The notes below the pieces were generated by a model. The model made no database searches, was not told the DNA's origin, and was given only the letters and a program-made list of their open reading frames with translations. A stretch of 64,000 nucleotides of DNA from Nitrospirota bacterium (GTDB lineage Bacteria; Nitrospirota; Thermodesulfovibrionia; Thermodesulfovibrionales; SM23-35): the NCBI GenBank assembly GCA_040757475.1, contig JBFLWW010000004.1, forward strand, positions 31,676 to 95,675, in the 5' to 3' direction. Shown one piece after another: positions 11,272 to 35,394 of the stretch; the stretch's first letter is position 1, and the number at the start of each line of letters is the position of its first letter. The translations under genes were made by a program, and so were the position numbers.

Positions 11272-12012
11272 CTATTCTCCAAGATATGCCTTTCTTACCT
11301 GTTCATTGTTCAGTAGCTCTTCACCTTTGCCCTCAAGTGCTATCCTGCCATTTTCAAGCACATAACCCCTGTTTGAGAGTTTGAGTGCTGCACGGGCATT
11401 CTGTTCGACAAGGAGGACTGTAACCCCTTCTTCATTAATCTCTTTTATCGTCTTGAATATCTTACTCACGATGATAGGGGCAAGGCCGAGGGAAGGTTCA
11501 TCAAGAAGCAGGAGTTTCGGATTAGACATGAGGGCCCTGCCTATTGCGAGCATCTGCTGTTCTCCTCCGCTCAGTGTTCCACCTAATTGCTTATGCCTTT
11601 CTTTTAGGACAGGGAATAATTCAAAAACTTTCTCTAATTGGGTTCTTAGTTGTTGGTTTTTAGTTTTTTGACTCCTGAGTACTGACTCCTGGCTACCGAC
11701 TACCGTATATCCTCCCATCTCAAGATTCTCTCTGACAGTAAGCTTAGGGAATATCCTTCTTCCTTCAGGCACCTGGCTGATACCCATCTCAACAATCCTG
11801 TGTGGAGAAATTCCCCTGATACTTTTTCCTTCAAACAGGATATCGCCTGAGAGAGGTTTCAGGATGCCTGATATCGTCATGAGAGTTGTTGACTTGCCTG
11901 CCCCATTGCTTCCAATGAGACAGACAATCTCCCCATGTTTCACTTCGATATTTATACCCTTTAATGCCTCAATCGGCCCATAGAATGTATGAACATCAAC
12001 AAGCTTTAGCAT
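11272..12012 (-). CDS. livF: branched-chain amino acid ABC transporter ATP-binding protein LivF
   Basis: Walker A GSNGAGKSTT, signature LSGGEQQML and Walker B LLLLDEPS. ATG 12012 lies behind GAGGTGG. There is an extra heptamer-encoded segment at 11645-11706. Confidence 0.9.
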   Translation of the reverse strand: MLKLVDVHTFYGPIEALKGINIEVKHGEIVCLIGSNGAGKSTTLMTISGILKPLSGDILFEGKSIRGISPHRIVEMGISQVPEGRRIFPKLTVRENLEMGGYTVVGSQESVLRSQKTKNQQLRTQLEKVFELFPVLKERHKQLGGTLSGGEQQMLAIGRALMSNPKLLLLDEPSLGLAPIIVSKIFKTIKEINEEGVTVLLVEQNARAALKLSNRGYVLENGRIALEGKGEELLNNEQVRKAYLGE

Positions 12013-12162
12013 AAATACCACCTCATGTAAAGTTTCCTCTTACTTCTTGTGTCGGGTCGAGGATGTCGAAGACGATATCGTCGAGGGCTTTGCGGCCAGG
12101 AAGAGGGTTGAGTTTTTGCTTACAGATAGGTTGGGAGAGTTTGGAGCCAAGATCATGTGTTG

Positions 12163-12588
12163 TCATTTTATTTTTGCAAGGAAATCTCCAGCGGTTATTA
12201 CATTGACAATACTTTTAATTTTGTCAGTAAAGAAATGTGCATCACCGGTTAAAAAATAGTCAGGCTTTACATAAAGAACTGCTGCAAGGACTGGAATGTC
12301 CTTTTTATGAGTTATCATGGATTCAGCATCTTTTAATTTGTGATTATACTTTGCCCGTGGGATAATCGAAATATCAGTCAAGGCTTTTTCTATTTCAGCA
12401 ACAGCAATTTCAAAGGTTCTCTCTTTTAGATATTTCAGCTTTTTTCTTACTACCTTCCGTAATTCATCAACAATATCCTCACTTGTCACAATGTCCAGCT
12501 CGACTAAATCCAGAATCTTTGATTCATTCCCATTAAAGAAAATTCCTGAGAGTAGGATGTTCGTATCAACAAAGACCTTGTATCTCAT
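12163..12588 (-). CDS. PIN-domain toxin (VapC-like)
   Basis: N-terminal VFVDTNILL plus later acidic residues typical of PIN. It overlaps the upstream antitoxin gene by 4 nt. Confidence 0.75.
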   Translation of the reverse strand: MRYKVFVDTNILLSGIFFNGNESKILDLVELDIVTSEDIVDELRKVVRKKLKYLKERTFEIAVAEIEKALTDISIIPRAKYNHKLKDAESMITHKKDIPVLAAVLYVKPDYFLTGDAHFFTDKIKSIVNVITAGDFLAKIK

Positions 12589-12800
12589 TTGCGCATCTTC
12601 TCAAGCTCTTTCAACATCTCTGCCTCTGAGATACCTTCTTTTTTCATAAGCCATCTCAGAAATGCTCTGCTTTTGCGGGCATAAGCCTTTTTGAGCGCTG
12701 ATACAACAGCCTCCGATGCGTCAGAGAATACGCCCAGCTTAATCTCCTCATTAATGTTCCGGTAGATATCCTCTGGAATCTGAGCCACTATTTTAGGCAT
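12585..12800 (-). CDS. ribbon-helix-helix (CopG-like) antitoxin
   Basis: 71 aa. IVAQIPEDIYRNINEEIKLGVFSDASEAVVSALKK fits the RHH pattern. GGAGG lies before the ATG. Confidence 0.55.
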   Translation of the reverse strand: MPKIVAQIPEDIYRNINEEIKLGVFSDASEAVVSALKKAYARKSRAFLRWLMKKEGISEAEMLKELEKMRK

Positions 12801-12944
12801 TTTACACCTCCTTAATATCTAACTTAGCTAATAATAACAGAAACTTTACAGCTTTGCACAATTCACACACACCTTACTTTCTTAAGGTTAAAATAAAAGC
12901 CCAGGTCTCCGCTCTCATCGAGGTATAGATAAAGCATTTATTTC

Positions 12945-13637
12945 TTATGCCCTGCTTAAATGCCTCTCATAAATATCCCTCAAAAACTCATAGCCTCTTA
13001 AGCCATAGATAATGCATATCCTGTTTGCGCTGTCACTCGCTCCGGCATCATAAAGAAATTCCACGATTGACCGTATATCCTTCTGGTCGAAATCTGGGGT
13101 TATCTTCTCAAGCATCTTCAAATAAATGTCCCCGATATATTTAGCTGTTTCTTTGCTATCACCTTTATCTTTGAGACTATCTAAATTCTCTATAAAGAAG
13201 GGTGAATTAAAATCTTCGTGTACATAAGGTACTGATAACATGAGCCATTCATGAGAATCAGCATCAATCTGTGGCAATAATGCGGTCAGTTTTGAAGCAG
13301 ACGATAAAATCTGCTTGTCTTCTTTGGTCAAAGATGCCTCATCTTTGCCTTTATATTTTTCATAGAGATATCTCCAGAACTCGATTATCCTCCCTTTCAT
13401 CTTTTCATTCTCTTCTGAGCTTATTCTCAAATAAGACCTCTGCATCCAGAAAAAGCTAATAATTTCTTTAATGTGTTCGTATTTAAACTTATTAATTATT
13501 CGATTGAATAGACTTTCTGGTTTCTCGATTGACTCATGTCCTCTCAAGTAGGCTAAGGAGATATGTTGTATAAGATGTTCGTTATCACGTTTTTCTCTAA
13601 AATCATAATCAATTCCATACTGATAGTGAGGTCTCAT
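12945..13637 (-). CDS. hypothetical all-alpha protein (230 aa)
   Basis: Long ORF with no recognisable motifs. Its 5' end abuts the livF-fragment junction (~13680), so it may be N-terminally truncated. Confidence 0.45.
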   Translation of the reverse strand: MRPHYQYGIDYDFREKRDNEHLIQHISLAYLRGHESIEKPESLFNRIINKFKYEHIKEIISFFWMQRSYLRISSEENEKMKGRIIEFWRYLYEKYKGKDEASLTKEDKQILSSASKLTALLPQIDADSHEWLMLSVPYVHEDFNSPFFIENLDSLKDKGDSKETAKYIGDIYLKMLEKITPDFDQKDIRSIVEFLYDAGASDSANRICIIYGLRGYEFLRDIYERHLSRA

Positions 13638-13678
13638 TAAATTTGGTAGATAATGTGCCTGTCCCTATTTTGCTGTTT

Positions 13679-13812
13679 CTGAGAGTTGTTGACTTGCCTG
13701 CCCCATTGCTTCCAATAAGACAAACAATCTCCCCTTGCTTTATATCGATATTAATGCCCTTCAGGGCTTCGATAGGACCGTAAAATGTATGAACGTCTGT
13801 AAGTTTTAGCAT
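13679..13812 (-). pseudogene. livF: 5' fragment of a second livF allele (first ~44 codons)
   Basis: MLKLTDVHTFYGPIEALKGINIDIKQGEIVCLIGSNGAGKSTTL, then homology stops abruptly. It is ~84% nt identical to 11879-12012, and the similarity continues ~75 nt upstream of the ATG. Confidence 0.85.
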
Positions 13813-13924
13813 AAATACCACACTGTGTAAAATTTTATCTTACTTCTTATCTATTTTTATTTTCTTCTTGTATCAGCCAAGGACATCGAAAAAACACCTA
13901 CTACAAATCATTACCTTTCAAAAT

Positions 13925-14314
13925 TTAGAACAAAATTTTCCCTTCACCTCCAATAGGCAGCGGTCGAACACGTATGCGAGTCTGTTCAAGGACAACTATG
14001 CTTCCTTGTTTCAAAGACTCTTCAATTGTCGGTAGATTTTTTAAAAGTAATCTAAGTTGATTCTCAGGACGTCTCTCTGAACCTCGTCGAAATAGGATAA
14101 TAGAGGGCTTTATTTCTGTTCTCATAGCAAGGATGGTGCCGAAGTCAGTATCAGTAGATATGATAATCCGCTCTTCTGTAGTGGCCTTATCAAAAATTTC
14201 TTCATCTTCAGCTGTCTGCATTTTATAATCACGAACATGTACAGCATCATGCCCAGCTTCTCGTAATCCTTTTGCTACAAAGGGAGATAAAGCGTTGTCT
14301 ATTAAAAACCTCAT
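13925..14314 (-). CDS. DUF5615-type (PIN-like/Mut7-C-like) toxin
   Basis: [27 protein letters not shown]…ISTDTDFG. It is the usual partner of DUF433 and overlaps it by 4 nt. Confidence 0.7.
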
Positions 14315-14541
14315 GTGGTTACCAAAGGCAATTCTCTTTCACGGATAGCTTCAGCTGCATATTGAAGGGCCTCTCGTATATCTTCTTTCTCCAGGTCAGG
14401 AAAAGCTTTCAAAATCTCTTCTTCGCTCATACCGTCAGCAACCATGCCAACTACAGTTGCAACAGGTATACGTAATCCACGAATACAAGGCACCCCACCC
14501 ATTTGTTTGGGATTAACTGTAATTCTTGTAAATTTCATCAT
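14311..14541 (-). CDS. DUF433-type antitoxin
   Basis: 76 aa. [49 protein letters not shown] is the canonical DUF433 pattern. Confidence 0.75.
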
Positions 14542-14733
14542 CCACCTCCTTTAATATTTTATTACATTCAGGTGCATTCTTCCTACAATCACAACCCCTG
14601 CAAATCATTGCTTTAGTCTACTCCTCCAATAAGCTTTTCCACTTCTTTCTTGGCTTTTTCTAAAAGTTCCTTTGCCTCTTTGCGTGCCTCACCAAATTCT
14701 CCTTTAAAGGCTTTGGATAAGATTGAGTGAGTT

Positions 14734-16485
14734 CTATAATATACAATTACATTTTATTTTCTTATAATCCATCTTAAGGCTACTCCACATTTTCATTGTC
14801 TCTTTACAAAGAGCAACGTTGGAATAATTATATTTTGACTTTAAATGTTCTATTACCGTGGAATACATTGTAAGTCGGGTCTGGAAATCAATCCTTCTGC
14901 CCCAATTAGAGGATTCTCTTAAATACTTAACCCAACTTTTATCTGAACATCCATTTATAGTACTCTGAAGCCCCCTTAAAGACCCTAAAGTAATCCTTTC
15001 TGGGGCAAGATTCTTAAAAATCAAATCTACTAATTGTAAATAAGATTCCTTCCATCCATCTATTGGAACCATCGGGTCTATCCTAATCCGAACCCCATAT
15101 CCTGTTTGATAGAGTTTCTTAGCTACTTCAACTCTCTTCAAAACAGGCGGTGCCTTCTTCTCCCACATTTTGGCAACAGGTATTGCATTGAGACTGAAGC
15201 TTATAATTGCTTGATTATGAGGCTCGATCTCTAAAAGGTTTTTTACATTCGAGGACTTGGTTAAGAATAAGACCTTGTGAATCTTCTGAGTTTCAAAAAT
15301 GGGGATAATAAATTTAGAAAATGGATGTCCTGAATTTTCATGCATTAATGAATCAGCGATTTCGCCTGTATTTAGTATTTCTGGCATCTCTACCTCCTCT
15401 AAAAATCTTCTGGTATGCAGTTCTATTTTCTCATAAGACTTGACCACTGGTTTTGGACCATTTGGGTGAAACCTGAAAGTCCCTTTTAAATAGCACCAAC
15501 TACAATCAAAAGGACATCCATAAGCCCATTTGAGTTCTAGGAAGTGGGGACAGACTACATCAGTTGAATTTGAATTTTCAGGAAAAGGCGTCTTATCAAA
15601 TCTTGTAATTATAGAGCCATCATTGACTCGCTCAACTAATTTTTCAATTCTTCTATTTAAGAGTTTGTAATCTTTGTATATTACTTTCGGTTTGGTAGAA
15701 AGATATACTGCCGAACTCTCGCGCACAAAACCGCCAGGGTTATTATTCAGCGAGAGCTTTATTTGACCTGTAGGAGAAATTTTGCTGATCTCTTTCCAGA
15801 ATTTATGACCCAGCAGGTGTTTACTCGCAAATAGTAGATAGTATAATGGCAGGTTTTTTTGACTGCTCCTTATTAATATCTCATCTCCAGATTTAATTTC
15901 GCTGTAACCAAGTTTGCTAAGGTTACCCTTATAATAATCTATTAGGTTCTTTTCTATGTGGGTAGATGTGAGCTGGCCTATATTTTTGATATCTTTTGGA
16001 AAAAGTTGTCGCCAGTCTTTGTCTCCAATATAATCATCTAAAATACTATGTGACTGTTTTATATATCTTGATAGATTTCTTTTAATATCCATCCCCTCTG
16101 GGAATGTAATAACCAGATCAATCCTTCGGTCTTCGGTCAATTTTTGGAGTGTCTCAAATTTAATATGTAATCCTGTAGGGTCAACAACTGCAAGGCTTAA
16201 CGCCCTCTCTGGTATTTCACTGGCAATATCATCAATTTTTTCATTACAGTCTCCTTGAATTATACTGACTTTATCTTTGATGGGTGATCTCTCAACCCTC
16301 TTTTTTAAAGCATTCACAGCCTCGGAGTCTAACTCAATCATAAAATATCGTTTAAAAGGATATTTAACAGAAAGAGAAATCAATGCTGAGCCATTAATTT
16401 CTTCGGCGGTTTTTCTTACTCTACATTTTCCAGAACCTGCAAATAAATCAATGTAATATAATTCTCCTCTCCATTTATTCTTCAT
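14734..16485 (-). CDS. fusion protein: TcmP-like (three-Cys-motif partner, SAM-MTase-like) N-half plus SplB/DNA-photolyase-like radical-SAM C-half
   Basis: The N-half has YIDLFAGSGKC and VVDPTG. The C-half has WAYGCPFDCSWCYL (CX3CX2C) and RIRIDPMVP. The start ATG overlaps the stop of the small upstream ORF (ATGA). Confidence 0.65.
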   Translation of the reverse strand: MKNKWRGELYYIDLFAGSGKCRVRKTAEEINGSALISLSVKYPFKRYFMIELDSEAVNALKKRVERSPIKDKVSIIQGDCNEKIDDIASEIPERALSLAVVDPTGLHIKFETLQKLTEDRRIDLVITFPEGMDIKRNLSRYIKQSHSILDDYIGDKDWRQLFPKDIKNIGQLTSTHIEKNLIDYYKGNLSKLGYSEIKSGDEILIRSSQKNLPLYYLLFASKHLLGHKFWKEISKISPTGQIKLSLNNNPGGFVRESSAVYLSTKPKVIYKDYKLLNRRIEKLVERVNDGSIITRFDKTPFPENSNSTDVVCPHFLELKWAYGCPFDCSWCYLKGTFRFHPNGPKPVVKSYEKIELHTRRFLEEVEMPEILNTGEIADSLMHENSGHPFSKFIIPIFETQKIHKVLFLTKSSNVKNLLEIEPHNQAIISFSLNAIPVAKMWEKKAPPVLKRVEVAKKLYQTGYGVRIRIDPMVPIDGWKESYLQLVDLIFKNLAPERITLGSLRGLQSTINGCSDKSWVKYLRESSNWGRRIDFQTRLTMYSTVIEHLKSKYNYSNVALCKETMKMWSSLKMDYKKIKCNCIL

Positions 16486-16640
16486 TGCTGCAGTGAAAAT
16501 CTCAAAATACCGCCTAAATAGAAATACTTATCCTTTGCCCAAAGTCCTACGCATCTGACCGGTAAACCATCAGAACCTTTTTGGACATTACATATGCTTT
16601 CAGGGGCATTTTTCTTATAATCACAGTCTCTACAAATCAT
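16482..16640 (-). CDS. small CxxC ORF (52 aa), possibly the frameshifted N-terminus of the downstream fusion gene
   Basis: MICRDCDYKKNAPESICNV…GLWAKDKYFYLGG…. Its ATG overlaps the R-M stop (ATGA) and its TGA overlaps the next ATG. It is below the ORF-track length cutoff. Confidence 0.4.
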   Translation of the reverse strand: MICRDCDYKKNAPESICNVQKGSDGLPVRCVGLWAKDKYFYLGGILRFSLQQ

Positions 16641-18382
16641 TGCTTTTTATAGATATCATCGATCTTTTCTTGCAATTCGACGGTTAACCTAATAGCCTTT
16701 GCAACTTTTATATAATGATTTATCTCATCAAGTGATAATTTTCGACCTTTTCTATCCTTCAAATATTTCTCCATTACCTGATAAGAACCAATACGGTATT
16801 CCCAGACTTCTTTAGAAACTCCCTCAAAATATTGCTTCTTGTTTAGAAAAACCCTCTGGTTAGCTTCATCATAAACGACCTTTTCAACTTTATTTGAGCC
16901 ACCTTCTGGAAAACCGATTTCGGTCCTATCAAGCGACGGATGCTTCAGCAAATGAAGGTCAACAAGTTCTTTCCCAAGATTGCTTAGTTTCTTAAATGAC
17001 TCACGATTTGAAGGCAAAGGGATTCTCGGAAAATCTATCTTGAGAAATTCCTCATATCGTTTCCGGTAAGTCGGAGAATAAAGGATTGCATAAATATAAT
17101 AGAAAATTTGTTCAGGTGTTGGAGACTTCTTAAGGGCTTTTGTTAACTGCTCAATTAATGTGGGAGAAATATTAGGCTTTTTAATATGATATTCTGCCAT
17201 TGGCTCAAAGAGAAGCATAAAGGTTTTGAGTGATTTTTTAGGATTGTCTCTTTTGGTCTCATAAATATAAAGTGGAAAGAAATAATTCTGGTCACCAATT
17301 ATATGTATATCTCCAATATTATTACATACAAAAGCAGGAATTCCAAATGTTTCTGGCATTCTTCTCGTTGTTACTAATCCGATATTTTCCTCAAAAAAGT
17401 TTTTCATTAAATCCCATCTGTCACATCCCCTGTCAATCAAATCTGGCAGATAGCAAATATATCTATTATCAAAAGGGCGATAGGCATATAGTCTGATAAA
17501 GTCTTTCCAGTCAGCCTTCTTTGCCTTTTCTTTTGCGGTGTTTAATTTCCAGTCACGCGTATCTTTTAAATCCAGTGCCTGCCTTATCAGTTCATAAGGC
17601 AAGTTGCTGGTAAAAGTTCTCATCCTCTGTTTGATTTCTTCTCTTGTAAATCCAACAACAAAATGGTCACGGTGAGTTTTCACACCACTCGACCATTCTT
17701 TAAATATCTCAGTCACCTTCCAAAACTTTTCATACTCAGCCTGCAAGGCAAAATCTTTTGGAATAAAGAAATAGTAAGGTGAAACAGGTTCAAGCTCTTG
17801 CCACCGTGTTGTTATCACATCGTTTTCAAAAAGGTATGCATATTTTTCCTTTCTCAGTCCCCAGAGGTCGGCATAATAGACTTTTTTCTTTTTCTGAGAT
17901 TTTTCTAATTTTACATATAAAGCAACAGAAACTCCCTGCTGGATGTCAAAAACATTCTCATCTCTGCCACCTTCAGGGGTCCTTTCTCCGATTCTCGATG
18001 AGCCGTGGAGGTTAAGAATATAAATCTCATCAAAGGCATCTAAAAGCTTTCTCCTCATGCCGCGATGGATTACTCCGGAAAGATAAGAGTTATTGGTAAT
18101 AAAACCTAACACCCCCTTGCCTGCCTGGTTTATCTTCCAGTGGGCAAAGCGGATGAACTTTATATAATCGTCAGAAAGGGGCTGGATATTCCGCTCATCC
18201 CTCACATCCTCTTTATAATCCTCCATCAGTTTTTCGATAAATTCTGACTTATTCTCTGAGCTGACAGAATAGGGAGGATTCCCGAAGATAACAAGGATAG
18301 GGACTTTTTCCTTTATCCTCTTTGCCTCCTGTCCTTCTTTTGCAAGGTCAATAAGAAAACTTACCTGCTTGGGCTCTTTCAT
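16637..18382 (-). CDS. type IIG/ISP-like R-M enzyme, C-terminal part (NPPY catalytic motif plus type-ISP-like specificity domain)
   Basis: VIFGNPPYSVSS (motif IV). C-terminal W-EYRIGSYQVMEKYLKDRKGRKLSLDE tail. It is in the same frame as 18407-19729, separated by one TAA plus 8 sense codons. Confidence 0.8.
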   Translation of the reverse strand: MKEPKQVSFLIDLAKEGQEAKRIKEKVPILVIFGNPPYSVSSENKSEFIEKLMEDYKEDVRDERNIQPLSDDYIKFIRFAHWKINQAGKGVLGFITNNSYLSGVIHRGMRRKLLDAFDEIYILNLHGSSRIGERTPEGGRDENVFDIQQGVSVALYVKLEKSQKKKKVYYADLWGLRKEKYAYLFENDVITTRWQELEPVSPYYFFIPKDFALQAEYEKFWKVTEIFKEWSSGVKTHRDHFVVGFTREEIKQRMRTFTSNLPYELIRQALDLKDTRDWKLNTAKEKAKKADWKDFIRLYAYRPFDNRYICYLPDLIDRGCDRWDLMKNFFEENIGLVTTRRMPETFGIPAFVCNNIGDIHIIGDQNYFFPLYIYETKRDNPKKSLKTFMLLFEPMAEYHIKKPNISPTLIEQLTKALKKSPTPEQIFYYIYAILYSPTYRKRYEEFLKIDFPRIPLPSNRESFKKLSNLGKELVDLHLLKHPSLDRTEIGFPEGGSNKVEKVVYDEANQRVFLNKKQYFEGVSKEVWEYRIGSYQVMEKYLKDRKGRKLSLDEINHYIKVAKAIRLTVELQEKIDDIYKKQ

Positions 18383-18406
18383 CTCTAAGGTATTGGTGAG
18401 ATAGAA

Positions 18407-19729
18407 TTAAAACCTCTCACCCTCTTTGAAGCGATAACCCATCTCTTCGAGAACCATGGAGACCTTGAAATGTCCTACAGTATAAGGAGCAACAAGAATC
18501 TCAAAGGCATGAAAATGGGGCAGAATATGCTCTTCCATGTAAGATTTAATAAGCCCTTCCTTCTTTTTCTCTTCCAGTTCTTTCTGAACCTGTTTGATTG
18601 CCTGAACTACAAATGTGAGAGTTCCAGCAGCAGGGTCAAGGAGAGTTATATCATCTGTGGCAAGTCCTTCGACTTTCCCGAACCTTTCTTTCAACAATTT
18701 ATGAATTGATCTCACAATGTATGAAACAACAGGCAGTGGTGTATAGTAGACCCCTAATCTTTCTCTCTCCTTTGGGTTATAAGTTGCGAGAAAGGTCTCG
18801 TAAAAATGAATTACAGGGTCTTCATCCCATCGAGTGGTCTTGAATTCTTTAAGTATTGAAGAAATCTCCGCTTTTTCAAGAACCTGACTTATATCATCAA
18901 CAATCCATGTTAGTGACTCAGGGAAATGAGGACCTGTCATAGAATGGAATATCTCTTTGAGCAAGGGTAAACTTTCAGGTATGAATTTCCATGCAATCTC
19001 TCTTTTAAACCCGTTTCGAACCTTCATCCTTGCAGCAAAAAGCCCGTAAGTTATTGTCTGTGCATAAAGGTCAGCAAACCTATCTTTTGTCAAAGTTTCT
19101 ATAAGTTCTTCCTGAAAAGCTTTATAAAACCTTGTTACTTCTTCATTTTCTCTTGAAAGCTCATCCTGTAAGATGTGTTCAAGGAATCGAGTTCTCTTTG
19201 CAAGTTGTACGGAAAGGTCAGATGATTTCTGGATCTCAGGAGTTGAGAATAAGAAGAATTTTTGTAAAAGATTAAGAAATGAATCCAATTTTTCAGGGGC
19301 AGGAGGATGTTTCAAACTCTTTAAAGTGAACTGGCGTCCTGCTTCAACCTTATCTATAAGGTTTCCATATCTATATAACCTGAATTCCAGGAAATTCGTT
19401 AAGATAAGGTTTGGTAAAGAATCCCTGTATCTCTTGAGCTGATCTGAATCTTCAATCTCACTGAGGTTTGTATCTGGTGTCTTTGCTTCAATATAGCCTA
19501 TTATTTCACCGTTCTTACCGATACGAAAATCGGGGATGCCTACTTCTGTCTTTCTTGGGAGAACAAGCACACTTGCAAAAGCTTCTAATCTAAAAATATG
19601 TGAAAACTCTTCAAAAAATCTCTTAAGGGTTTGTAGTTCTTCAACTGCTCCACCTGATGCTGGAAGAATTTTAAGCTCTCTTCCGAGAAGGTCTAATAAA
19701 GGTGTAATTGAAGCTAAAGGATTAGGCAT
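18407..19729 (-). CDS. type IIG/ISP-like R-M enzyme, N-terminal part (PD-ExK-like motif plus AdoMet-binding half of the N6-adenine MTase)
   Basis: IPDFRIGKNGEIIGYIEAK (D…EAK), FADLYAQTITYGLFAAR, GVYYTP and LLDPAAGTLTF (motif I). It ends at an in-frame TAA (18407-18409). Confidence 0.8.
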   Translation of the reverse strand: MPNPLASITPLLDLLGRELKILPASGGAVEELQTLKRFFEEFSHIFRLEAFASVLVLPRKTEVGIPDFRIGKNGEIIGYIEAKTPDTNLSEIEDSDQLKRYRDSLPNLILTNFLEFRLYRYGNLIDKVEAGRQFTLKSLKHPPAPEKLDSFLNLLQKFFLFSTPEIQKSSDLSVQLAKRTRFLEHILQDELSRENEEVTRFYKAFQEELIETLTKDRFADLYAQTITYGLFAARMKVRNGFKREIAWKFIPESLPLLKEIFHSMTGPHFPESLTWIVDDISQVLEKAEISSILKEFKTTRWDEDPVIHFYETFLATYNPKERERLGVYYTPLPVVSYIVRSIHKLLKERFGKVEGLATDDITLLDPAAGTLTFVVQAIKQVQKELEEKKKEGLIKSYMEEHILPHFHAFEILVAPYTVGHFKVSMVLEEMGYRFKEGERF

Positions 19730-19759
19730 CGCTTAAAAGTATATCAAATACTCTAACAT

Positions 19760-20280
19760 TATTTTCCATTGTGCCCTTATATGAAATCAAATAGATAATC
19801 ACTTGGATTCTCTTTTGGCCATCCTGAGATATATTCTAAAATTGCATCTGCAATCCCTTTAAAATCATTTAATTTGTAGGACGACGAGACTATCAGTACA
19901 CCTTTCCTGTTCGTCCAATCTCATGCACGCTAATGGCATTTATGCCTTTCTCTCTAAGAATAACTGCTATTTGTGGGCTCAGGTCTTCATCCAGAAGGAG
20001 TTTCATCCCTTCTTCCTAACAAATGGAAGTTCAGAATGAGCGTTCTCTTTACTCCATGCCCTGTTTTTCTCTATCAAACTTTCTGTCTCATCGGGGTATG
20101 TCTTTGCATAGCCGATTGCTGCCATAATCTGTCTGTCGGTGAGCCAGTGAAACGCATCTTTTAATGCCCTGATATCTCTGATGTTAGACTTGAGAAAGTC
20201 TCTTTTTTCATATGTAAAAGACTTTTCACATCAGCTAAGGTCTCTTTGTCTATACGGATACTTTTTACAATGCTCCCCAT
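19760..20280 (-). pseudogene. decayed DUF433/DUF5615 toxin-antitoxin pair
   Basis: From ATG 20280 (GGAGGATAAA upstream) there is a 39-codon ORF. A shifted frame then reads …HWLTDRQIMAAIGYAKTYPDETESLIEKN (DUF433-like). MKLLLDEDLSPQIAVILREKGINAISVHEI follows (DUF5615-like, stop after 37 aa, 19893-20006). Confidence 0.55.
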
Positions 20281-20306
20281 TTTATCCTCCATAAATTGAT
20301 GTATAC

Positions 20307-20329
20307 ATAATATTACATTGTAATATTAT
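20307..20329. promoter_or_regulatory. perfect 11-1-11 palindrome upstream of the decayed TA operon (candidate operator)
   Basis: ATAATATTACA-T-TGTAATATTAT lies 27-49 nt upstream of ATG 20280, directly after the livG stop. Confidence 0.4.
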
Positions 20330-20347
20330 TGCCAAGATGTCTTAGCA

Positions 20348-34479: not shown

Positions 34480-34555
34480 TGGTGGACGGTAGGGGATTCG
34501 AACCCCCGACTTCCACGTTGCGAACGTGGTGCTCTCCCACCTGAGCTAACCGCCC
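34480..34555 (-). tRNA. tRNA-Ala (CGC)
   Basis: Cloverleaf by hand: GGGCGGT acceptor with G3:U70, anticodon loop TTCGCAA, GGTTCGAATCC T-arm, encoded CCA. Confidence 0.9.
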
Positions 34556-34738
34556 ATTTAAAACACTGATCAGTTAACAGTGGACAGTGAATAGTAAAAT
34601 ATGAAAGATAATACAGTCAACTCTAAATGCTGAATATAAGGGCATGTTGACACAAATTCTTATAAACTCTTATAATTTATAGCCTCTAAGCAAATTTCGC
34701 TCTGTAAAATTTGCAGTGATTAGTTATCAGTCGTTAGT

Positions 34739-34815
<77 letters not shown>

Positions 34816-34947
34816 TGCAAATTTCGCAGAGCGAAATTTGCAGTGAATAGTTATTAGTGATTCGTGTTTAGTTTAAATTGAAAAATTTATTCTATTTTTG
34901 ATTTATACTATTAACTAATCACTATTCACTGATAACTGTCTTTAATC

Positions 34948-35024
34948 GGTGAGTGTAGCTCAATGGTTAGAGCACTGGACTGTGGCTCCAGGTGTTGGGG
35001 GTTCAAGTCCCCTCACTCACCCCA
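34948..35024 (+). tRNA. tRNA-His (GTG)
   Basis: Extra 5' G(-1), anticodon loop CTGTGGC, GGTTCAAGTCC, encoded CCA. Confidence 0.9.
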
Positions 35025-35026
35025 AT

Positions 35027-35100
35027 GCGCCTGTAGCTCAGTGGATTAGAGCATCGGCCTCCGGAGCCGAGGGTCGGAGGTTCAAATCCTCTCAGGCGCG
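35027..35100 (+). tRNA. tRNA-Arg (CCG)
   Basis: GCGCCTG acceptor, anticodon loop CTCCGGA, GGTTCAAATCC. CCA is not encoded. It lies 2 nt after tRNA-His. Confidence 0.9.
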
Positions 35101-35200
35101 CTAAGCGAATTTTGCAGAGCAAAATTCGCAGTTGTCAGTGATTAGTCTTCAGTTGTCAGTAAACTGAACACTTAAAACTGGCAACTAAAAAACTGGAAGT

Positions 35201-35276
<76 letters not shown>

Positions 35277-35319
35277 TCTGAGGCCTCCAAAAAGTCAAAG
35301 ACTTTTTTGGAGTAGCTAT

Positions 35320-35394
35320 GCCGGTGTAGCTCAGAGGCAGAGCAGCTGATTCGTAATCAGCTGGTCGGGGGTTCGACTCTCCCCACCGGCTCCA
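35320..35394 (+). tRNA. tRNA-Thr (CGT)
   Basis: GCCGGTG acceptor, anticodon loop TTCGTAA, GGTTCGACTC T-arm, encoded CCA. Confidence 0.9.

Follow-up and report, generated by a model that had tools for sequence, protein, structure and literature searches.

What does a radical S-adenosylmethionine (SAM) enzyme resembling spore photoproduct lyase (SPL) do when it is joined to a methyltransferase-like TcmP domain and placed directly behind a restriction-modification (R-M) gene? This question is raised by a module gene at 14734-16640 of a 64,000-nucleotide stretch of contig JBFLWW010000004.1 (hereafter the window), which belongs to a Nitrospirota metagenome-assembled genome (MAG; assembly GCA_040757475.1). 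The reading we prefer, with a probability of about 40%, is that the module is a DNA-modifying accessory, or writer, of R-M systems. TcmP is a named family without known function, and its pairing with DUF5131 proteins is only a candidate defence system. DUF5131 proteins are not its sole partners, as this locus demonstrates: TcmP can likewise be paired with a second, SPL-like radical-SAM (rSAM) enzyme, frequently within one polypeptide, and in many anaerobe phyla this pair is attached to the 3' end of R-M operons, which belong to several unrelated types.

As sequenced, the module gene is interrupted. The open reading frame (ORF) listing of the window contains a 583-amino-acid (aa) ORF (14734..16485) and a 52-codon ORF (16482..16640), both on the minus strand and both as described in an earlier note on this DNA, which suspected a single gene carrying a frameshift. 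Adding one base between 16512 and 16513 yields an ORF of 635 aa whose product aligns with its homologue P0001 (632 aa) over the whole length, without terminal overhang, at 81% identity. Among 5.8 billion proteins searched there were 1,401 relatives; the nearest are metagenomic proteins of ~632 aa with 76-80% identity. Their N-terminus reads MICSGCDYKKNAPEGIC...VRCVGLWAKDKYFYLGRYLDIFT, which corresponds to the small ORF continued by the frame that is open upstream of the large one, and across the deletion point the homologues read ...KYFYLGRY(F/L)(E/D)IFT.... The repair also improves the match to the TcmP profile TIGR04474, which begins only at profile position 27 in the unrepaired ORF and covers positions 2-258 of 263 (157.4 bits) afterwards. 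At the level of sequence, the region is proven to be a single minus-strand gene split by a one-nucleotide deletion. The note was right about the frameshift and had counted three pieces where there are two. It had also proposed that stop and start codons overlap twice. The overlap of the R-M stop with the ATG of the small ORF was confirmed; the ATG at 16482-16485 encodes a conserved internal methionine, Met53, so the second ATGA coupling is an artefact. Programmed frameshifting or recoding was rejected because about 50 intact homologues read through the site, where there is no slippery sequence. The public annotation of the same MAG holds only a 330-aa 'radical SAM protein' (P0053) that is 100% identical to the C-terminal part.

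The R-M gene upstream is also broken. Its two halves, of 581 aa (16637..18382) and 440 aa (18407..19729), lie on the minus strand in the same frame and are separated by an in-frame TAA that the earlier note had missed. They match the PADLOC model REase_MTase_IIG (1.8e-91 and 1.5e-143) and Pfam Type_ISP_C (4e-93), and together encode a PD-ExK nuclease, a gamma N6-adenine methyltransferase (motif I; NPPY at 18269-18280) and a Type_ISP_C target-recognition domain (TRD). In tblastn, a 400-aa query spanning the TAA aligns in one piece to intact plasmid genes, with 45.7% identity for a Haloferax volcanii enzyme. Recoding at the TAA was rejected as well, there being no recoding context. No helicase domain occurs among the Pfam or PADLOC matches of this protein of about 1030 aa, and since it has no helicase motor it is by sequence a type IIG enzyme with an ISP-type C-terminal domain and not a type ISP enzyme, and it is probably non-functional as sequenced; of the previous label 'type IIG/ISP-like', the second part applies to that domain only. 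With a frameshift in the module gene and a nonsense codon in its partner, the operon is most likely inactive in this genome, unless both defects are assembly errors. The module is chained to the R-M gene through the ATGA overlap, as proposed in describing the two as locked together, although both genes are disrupted here.

The N-terminal half of the module opens with a Cys4 element in which C3, C6, C17 and C30 are nearly invariant in a 50-sequence alignment. The region forms two short beta-strands in the structural model and presumably binds metal. The TcmP domain follows. As sequenced, residues 4-233 of the 583-aa ORF match TIGR04474 with an E-value of 7.6e-42 and 144.1 bits (cut-off 53), the profile search thereby bearing out the TcmP-like assignment made by eye. 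An AlphaFold2 model of P0001, built from the 50-sequence alignment, has an overall predicted local distance difference test (pLDDT) score of 74.7 with values of ~85-95 in the N half, for which it predicts a class I SAM-dependent methyltransferase fold with a glycine-rich SAM loop. The best Foldseek match of this half is RlmJ, the 23S rRNA m6A methyltransferase (E 5e-6, TM about 0.5 on the target), and further fold matches are tRNA and RNA-cap methyltransferases and other class I enzymes. TcmP and RlmJ have in common an N-terminal H/W...K(H)..L helix (HxxxKH) and the motifs YxDxxAGxG, GSPLIA and IDP; motif IV is DP(T/F)G in TcmP and DPPY in RlmJ. By sequence, hhalign of TcmP against E. coli RlmJ is non-significant (probability 2%), and the TcmP alignment profile finds only a marginal RsmD-like match in the PDB (2fhp, E 0.52), so it is through fold and motifs only that the two can be related. 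TcmP classes differ in whether they carry the Cys4 N-terminus or a GMT-wHTH (winged helix-turn-helix) domain. The fold and motif resemblance to RlmJ would suit an RNA- or protein-directed enzyme, such as an rRNA or tRNA modifier like RlmJ or RlmN, whose position beside R-M genes reflects shared mobility; the non-significant profile comparison speaks against this.

The C-terminal half matches Pfam SPL (PF20903; residues 320-495 of the 583-aa ORF, E 9.5e-18, 64.6 bits against a gathering threshold of 27), while the generic radical-SAM family PF04055 scores 17.3 bits, below its threshold of 29.5. Against the PDB, the rSAM profile matched SPL alone (4FHC and others, E 3e-16), and the C half of the P0001 model matches SPL by Foldseek (E 9e-9), with low pLDDT around the cluster loop. 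We compared 116 representatives, which are 50%-identity clusters of the rSAM domain. The three cysteines of CX3CX2C are kept in 111-115 of them, and all seven, counting those of CPHF, LCKE and the C-terminal CxC, are each kept in 100-115. The four further cysteines may form a second metal site, holding an auxiliary cluster or zinc. The position of Cys140, the hydrogen donor of SPL, is the Ala of GEIADSLM in the window protein and varies among the representatives (A 35, S 31, C 13, G 10). As evidenced by this substitution and by low equivalog scores (73.8 bits versus 400 for TIGR04070; 41.4 versus 437.55 for TIGR03886), the C half is not a true SPL. The SplB-like radical-SAM character described in the earlier note is real, and the DLFAGSG, VDPTG and CX3CX2C motifs lie where it had placed them. 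A repair enzyme is nevertheless one candidate: it would directly reverse lesions in the manner of SPL (a cross-link or an alkyl or methylene adduct) and be carried with R-M as Vsr is with Dcm. The nearest solved structure is that of the DNA-repair enzyme SPL, and the anaerobic hosts are ones in which radical-SAM repair is feasible, but the unconserved Cys140 and the scores far under the cut-offs argue against this function.

A more direct indication of the substrate comes from proteins in which the rSAM domain has other partners. In these multi-domain fusions the domain is 53-63% identical. The 802-aa protein P0126 (locus L078, 6558-8966) joins a complete two-TRD R-M specificity (S) subunit, with two MAD5-like Methylase_S repeats, in frame to the rSAM domain; the gene order there is RadC, IIG R/M subunit, a 312-aa unknown, S::rSAM and TcmP. 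Six cluster representatives (P0131, P0132, P0135, P0136, P0140 and P0141) are ParB_N + HTH_ParB::rSAM fusions, and in one locus the fusion gene is followed by two TcmP-family genes (L102:837-5810). The domain is also found fused to a sigma70_r4-type helix-turn-helix (HTH) and to GMT-wHTH. ParB-like proteins accompany DNA-modification systems such as Dnd and Dpd. Since S subunit, ParB and HTH/wHTH partners all bind duplex DNA, we infer that the enzyme acts on DNA, and the fusions predict sequence-targeted duplex DNA as its substrate. These double-stranded DNA binders are difficult to reconcile with an RNA or protein target, as is the fact that SPL, the nearest structural relative, acts on DNA. 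In both loci examined for it (L102:837-5810 and L103:3320-5446), the ParB::rSAM fusion gene begins directly next to a conserved ORF of 81 aa.

How widespread is this enzyme, and does it always come with TcmP? Scanning one genome per species, we found 185 relatives among 185,579 species, all in MAGs, from Nitrospirota, Dehalococcoidia, Zixibacteria, Desulfobacterota, WOR-3, Omnitrophota, Ignavibacteria, Planctomycetota, Clostridia and two archaea. The family is thus rare and spread across phyla, and its hosts are uncultured anaerobes. When 1.84 billion representatives were searched with HMMER for the rSAM half, 1,515 matched, 154 of them at E <= 1e-30. In the 80 species-level loci kept, TcmP is fused to the rSAM domain in 26 (600-730 aa), precedes a ~320-350-aa rSAM gene directly in 25 and follows it directly in 4; no TcmP ORF was called in 24 (contig ends, frameshifts or deletions) and no rSAM ORF in one. 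The partnership is obligate across architectures. With 26 fused against 29 split loci, the idea that the two modules are normally separate genes and their fusion exceptional does not stand. Mean column identity across phyla is 64% for the rSAM domain and 31% for TcmP, as would be expected if an unchanging catalytic core worked with a targeting partner that varies. Some members have unusual forms. Two predicted viral contigs from IMG/VR (L104 and L105) contain a pair of rSAM paralogues in tandem and, convergent to them, a TcmP gene, and the 735-aa family member P0143 has an apparent intein or LAGLIDADG insertion. One stand-alone rSAM protein (L022:7920-8957), which seems to have arisen by deletion from a 703-aa fusion, begins with ~25 residues that match the start of a class II TcmP (MKTENEFFKAKRPWSKIKD...); the start of its gene shares 4 nucleotides (nt) with the stop of the S-subunit gene before it.

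The genomic surroundings of the family tie it to R-M with a clear direction. Taking loci with at least 3 kb of upstream sequence and counting R-M genes within four genes on the same strand, we found one upstream in 19 of 48 loci, directly adjacent in 13; downstream there was none (0/51). The co-occurrence survey proposed in the earlier note thus returned a positive answer, and the DNA modification, repair or anti-phage role that it put forward as a hypothesis is compatible with such surroundings. The linked genes come from several unrelated families, namely MmeI-like IIG, IIG with a separate S subunit, a 1388-aa Eco57I/TaqI_C enzyme, type III Mod+Res and a CfrBI-type system, whose REase adjoins a 460-aa gene in one linked context. 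In the window, L002, L022 and L092 the R-M and module genes overlap or are separated by at most 4 nt. NPP[YFW] is retained in every linked IIG enzyme, which means that the module would supplement methylation and not take its place. In the window's own subfamily a IIG gene stands immediately upstream in 4 of 8 independent contexts, the window included, and is absent from the others. BLAST with the R-M protein of the window as query gave no matches among the genes next to homologues; the linkage is therefore to R-M genes in general and not to that family. For the RNA- or protein-directed enzyme, the many loci without an R-M neighbour are a further point in favour, but shared mobility by itself hardly accounts for a bias of 19/48 against 0/51, and this bias together with the duplex-DNA-binding fusion partners leaves us regarding such a target as very improbable.

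Co-localization with R-M could also arise if the module were an autonomous anti-phage system of the PDC-M41/PDC-M30 type. In such a system TcmP would sense or mark and the rSAM enzyme would be a nucleic-acid-damaging effector, forming a restriction-like or abortive second line that clusters and is co-expressed with R-M since defence systems travel together. Class I TcmP is PADLOC PDC-M41A, which the N half of the window protein matches at 6.8e-26, and class II TcmP, with its wHTH, matches PDC-M30A at 7e-50. Canonical TcmP-DUF5131 pairs lie beside DUF262 genes on a plasmid and beside an immunity repressor in a Gordonia prophage, and the window copy shares its island with toxin-antitoxin pairs and a Dsr1 remnant. 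Most loci contain the TcmP-rSAM pair alone, a conserved catalytic core with a variable partner also fits a sensor-effector design, and cassette variants occupy one site between mtnA and PNP, like defence hotspots. However, the PDC systems are candidates only, and the SPL-like rSAM enzyme has no PADLOC model. The strict order of R-M first and module second, the stop/start overlap and the S-subunit::rSAM fusion suggest physical integration with R-M instead, and we consider an independent effector somewhat unlikely.

The mtnA/PNP site is found in Dehalococcoidia/Chloroflexota, where the cassette, in variants with or without IIG, lies between mtnA (IF-2B family) and an MTAP-like PNP_UDP_1 gene (L014, L016, L017, L037, L044, L048, L049, L051, L067 and L070). 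The occurrence of different variants at the same place fits an insertion hotspot. A functional coupling of mtnA/PNP to salvage of 5'-deoxyadenosine or MTA was rejected as the main explanation, as the arrangement is almost confined to these lineages. In remaining loci the cassette sits between other housekeeping genes (recA/recX/alaS, recG, mnmA, pyrD), flanks that are typical of small mobile islets. RadC is upstream in 8 of the 48 loci with upstream sequence and in about ten overall. As full-length protein (JAB+HhH) or as 93-138-aa fragments, it was observed upstream of R-M/TcmP/rSAM cassettes in unrelated phyla and may be part of the system or mark a favoured insertion site; RadC-bearing loci are L002, L004, L018, L021, L022, L032, L046, L057, L068, L078, L094 and L096.

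These neighbours bear on the repair explanation. RadC recurs, and some loci include recA/recX, recG, recO, a DprA-like gene, Pyr_excise or Ogt, as might be expected of a lesion-reversing enzyme. Yet recA and recG, like mtnA, are best read as insertion-site flanks within single clades, and so rare and patchy a family (185/185,579 species) is unlike a housekeeping repair gene. Nor does repair have an obvious need for a fast-diverging methyltransferase-like partner or an R-M specificity subunit. Taken with the unconserved Cys140, this makes repair improbable in our estimation.

The preferred reading, a DNA-modifying accessory of R-M, has four parts, all of which we infer: a DNA substrate, radical chemistry on a nucleotide, an outcome that is modification and neither cleavage nor repair, and joint action with the R-M enzyme. 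In the mechanism we propose, the variable part of the module (TcmP, zinc-ribbon or wHTH) would position the enzyme on DNA and supply conventional SAM chemistry. The conserved rSAM domain would bind a [4Fe-4S] cluster through CX3CX2C and a second metal through the four further cysteines, and would convert SAM to a 5'-deoxyadenosyl radical that abstracts hydrogen from a flipped-out nucleotide. The outcome would be a covalent DNA modification, serving as a second 'self' mark beside the N6-adenine methylation of the co-transcribed upstream R-M enzyme.

Several observations weigh against this interpretation. Motif IV of TcmP is not the (D/N/S)PP(Y/F/W) of nucleic-acid amino-methyltransferases, its closest fold match is an RNA enzyme, and the structural model is of moderate quality. 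The listing of TcmP relatives as candidate defence components (PDC-M41A/PDC-M30A) would suit either an effector or a writer. R-M neighbours are missing from more than half of the loci, which lie among housekeeping genes, so the module needs no R-M partner. The rSAM gene is carried by 7 of 2.9 million viral contigs (weak or rare), and GenBank phages contain 6 distant matches to the family; an anti-restriction modification enzyme would be expected in phages more often. In the literature we found no functional study of TcmP, DUF5131 pairs or the SPL-like rSAM family; what exists are incidental annotations (PMC12445080, PMC12429752).

More broadly, SPL-like rSAM/TcmP modules may be radical enzymes of a new class that act on DNA and become part of R-M complexes, either as writers of a hypermodification at or near the recognition site or as a radical form of 'restriction'; we put this forward as a tentative possibility, of which the fusion to the specificity subunit in one lineage would be the most literal form. 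The hypermodification would possibly be sulfur- or carbon-based and use the second, Cys4 metal site. If so, it would be the first demonstrated case of a radical-SAM enzyme with a direct role in distinguishing self from non-self on DNA. Radical chemistry would then join the repertoire of DNA modification and restriction, and two orphan families would gain a function.

In the window, the operon is part of a low-GC island next to livF (Table 1). A direct duplication of the 5' end of livF and its upstream region brackets part of the island, which points to an insertion in several steps through recombination at livF. Of the 1227 positions of the Dsr1 model, a 230-aa ORF aligns solely to the final ~210 (E 1.3e-43) and is, judging from this match, a remnant of a defence-associated sirtuin gene. 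Two toxin-antitoxin-like pairs complete the set. With three disrupted defence genes the island resembles a decaying defence islet, and for this genome the locus thus means a decaying defence operon within a small island at livF. Elsewhere in the window, six tRNA genes (Ala, Arg, His, Arg, Lys, Thr) are clustered at 34480-35394, and the two tRNA-Arg genes among them account for a 121-bp repeat in the self-comparison of the window.

Table 1 Features of the module gene, its R-M partner and the surrounding island, in window coordinates.
Feature	Position	Strand	Basis or remark
Low-GC island between livG and livF	12049..20347	.	GC 35-40% vs 41-44% in flanks
169-bp direct duplication, livF 5' end and upstream region	11880-12048 vs 13680-13848		82% identity
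Toxin-antitoxin-like pair, 141 aa + 71 aa, stop/start overlapping	12163-12800	-	
Dsr1 remnant, 230-aa ORF	12945-13637	-	PADLOC Dsr1
Toxin-antitoxin-like pair, DUF433 + DUF5615/PIN_10	13925-14541	-	domain matches
Repaired module gene, 635 codons	14734..16640	-	Cys4 N-terminus :: TcmP :: SPL-like radical SAM; pseudogene as sequenced
SPL-like radical-SAM domain	14737..15687	-	Pfam SPL PF20903
CNC	14743-14751	-	C-terminal CxC, further conserved Cys
LCKET	14797-14811	-	further conserved Cys
CX3CX2C (CPFDCSWC)	15493-15516	-	radical-SAM cluster motif
CPHF	15541-15552	-	further conserved Cys
TcmP domain, predicted class I methyltransferase fold	15787..16541	-	TIGR04474
VDPTG motif	16171-16185	-	TcmP domain
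DLFAGSG motif	16429-16449	-	TcmP domain
1-nt deletion (frameshift) in codon Gly43	between 16512 and 16513	-	context tta gg^ cgg tat
Cys4 zinc-ribbon-like element (C3, C6, C17, C30)	16551..16640	-	50-sequence alignment
ATGA overlap, R-M stop (TGA) / module start codon	16637..16640	-	sequence
Type IIG R-M gene, TAA-interrupted	16637..19729	-	PADLOC REase_MTase_IIG, Pfam Type_ISP_C
In-frame TAA splitting the R-M gene	18407..18409	-	...KEGERF*FYLTNTLEM...

How does the module compare with systems already described? In having a non-R-M enzyme co-transcribed with or fused to R-M components it is analogous to Vsr/Dcm and PrrC/EcoprrI, and its ParB-type DNA-loading modules on a putative DNA-modifying enzyme recall Dnd and Dpd. 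Vsr, PrrC, Dnd and Dpd have no homology to the module, and to our knowledge none of them uses an SPL-type radical-SAM enzyme with an RlmJ-like partner. RlmJ (DUF519), which methylates 23S rRNA at m6A2030, is the fold neighbour of TcmP, to which TcmP adds a zinc-ribbon or wHTH and the rSAM partner. SPL acts on flipped-out nucleotides of duplex DNA. SplB (PDB 4FHC; TIGR04070; PF20903) and the module's rSAM half share a partial TIM-barrel core and CX3CX2C, with ~170-250 residues aligned. Unlike SplB, the module enzyme has four extra near-invariant cysteines, an additional conserved N-terminal segment (NDGSIITRFDKTP), a TcmP partner, hosts that are not spore formers and an Ala or variable residue at the Cys140 position.

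The closest comparison is with the canonical TcmP pairs, in which the partner is a separate DUF5131 'phage Gp37/Gp68' protein, and not an SplB-like enzyme as the earlier note had supposed. Such pairs occur on plasmids and in a Gordonia prophage (L097, L098 and L099). Their DUF5131 proteins match PDC-M41B/PDC-M30B at 1e-55 to 1e-111 and have the Cys motif C-x7-C-x2-C, as read from the sequences. The window module lacks this B component of PDC-M41/M30, and its SPL-like rSAM half, with CX3CX2C, matched no PADLOC model. DUF5131 (Megacluster-5-2) and SPL (5-3) are neighbouring subgroups in RadicalSAM.org (PMC9477430). Both kinds of TcmP pair therefore draw their partner from the radical-SAM superfamily, and both are found in mobile or defence contexts. 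Unlike the DUF5131 pair, the SPL-like/TcmP pair is often one polypeptide and is placed behind R-M genes. Overall, the family is a partner-swapped variant of the uncharacterised candidate system PDC-M41/PDC-M30.

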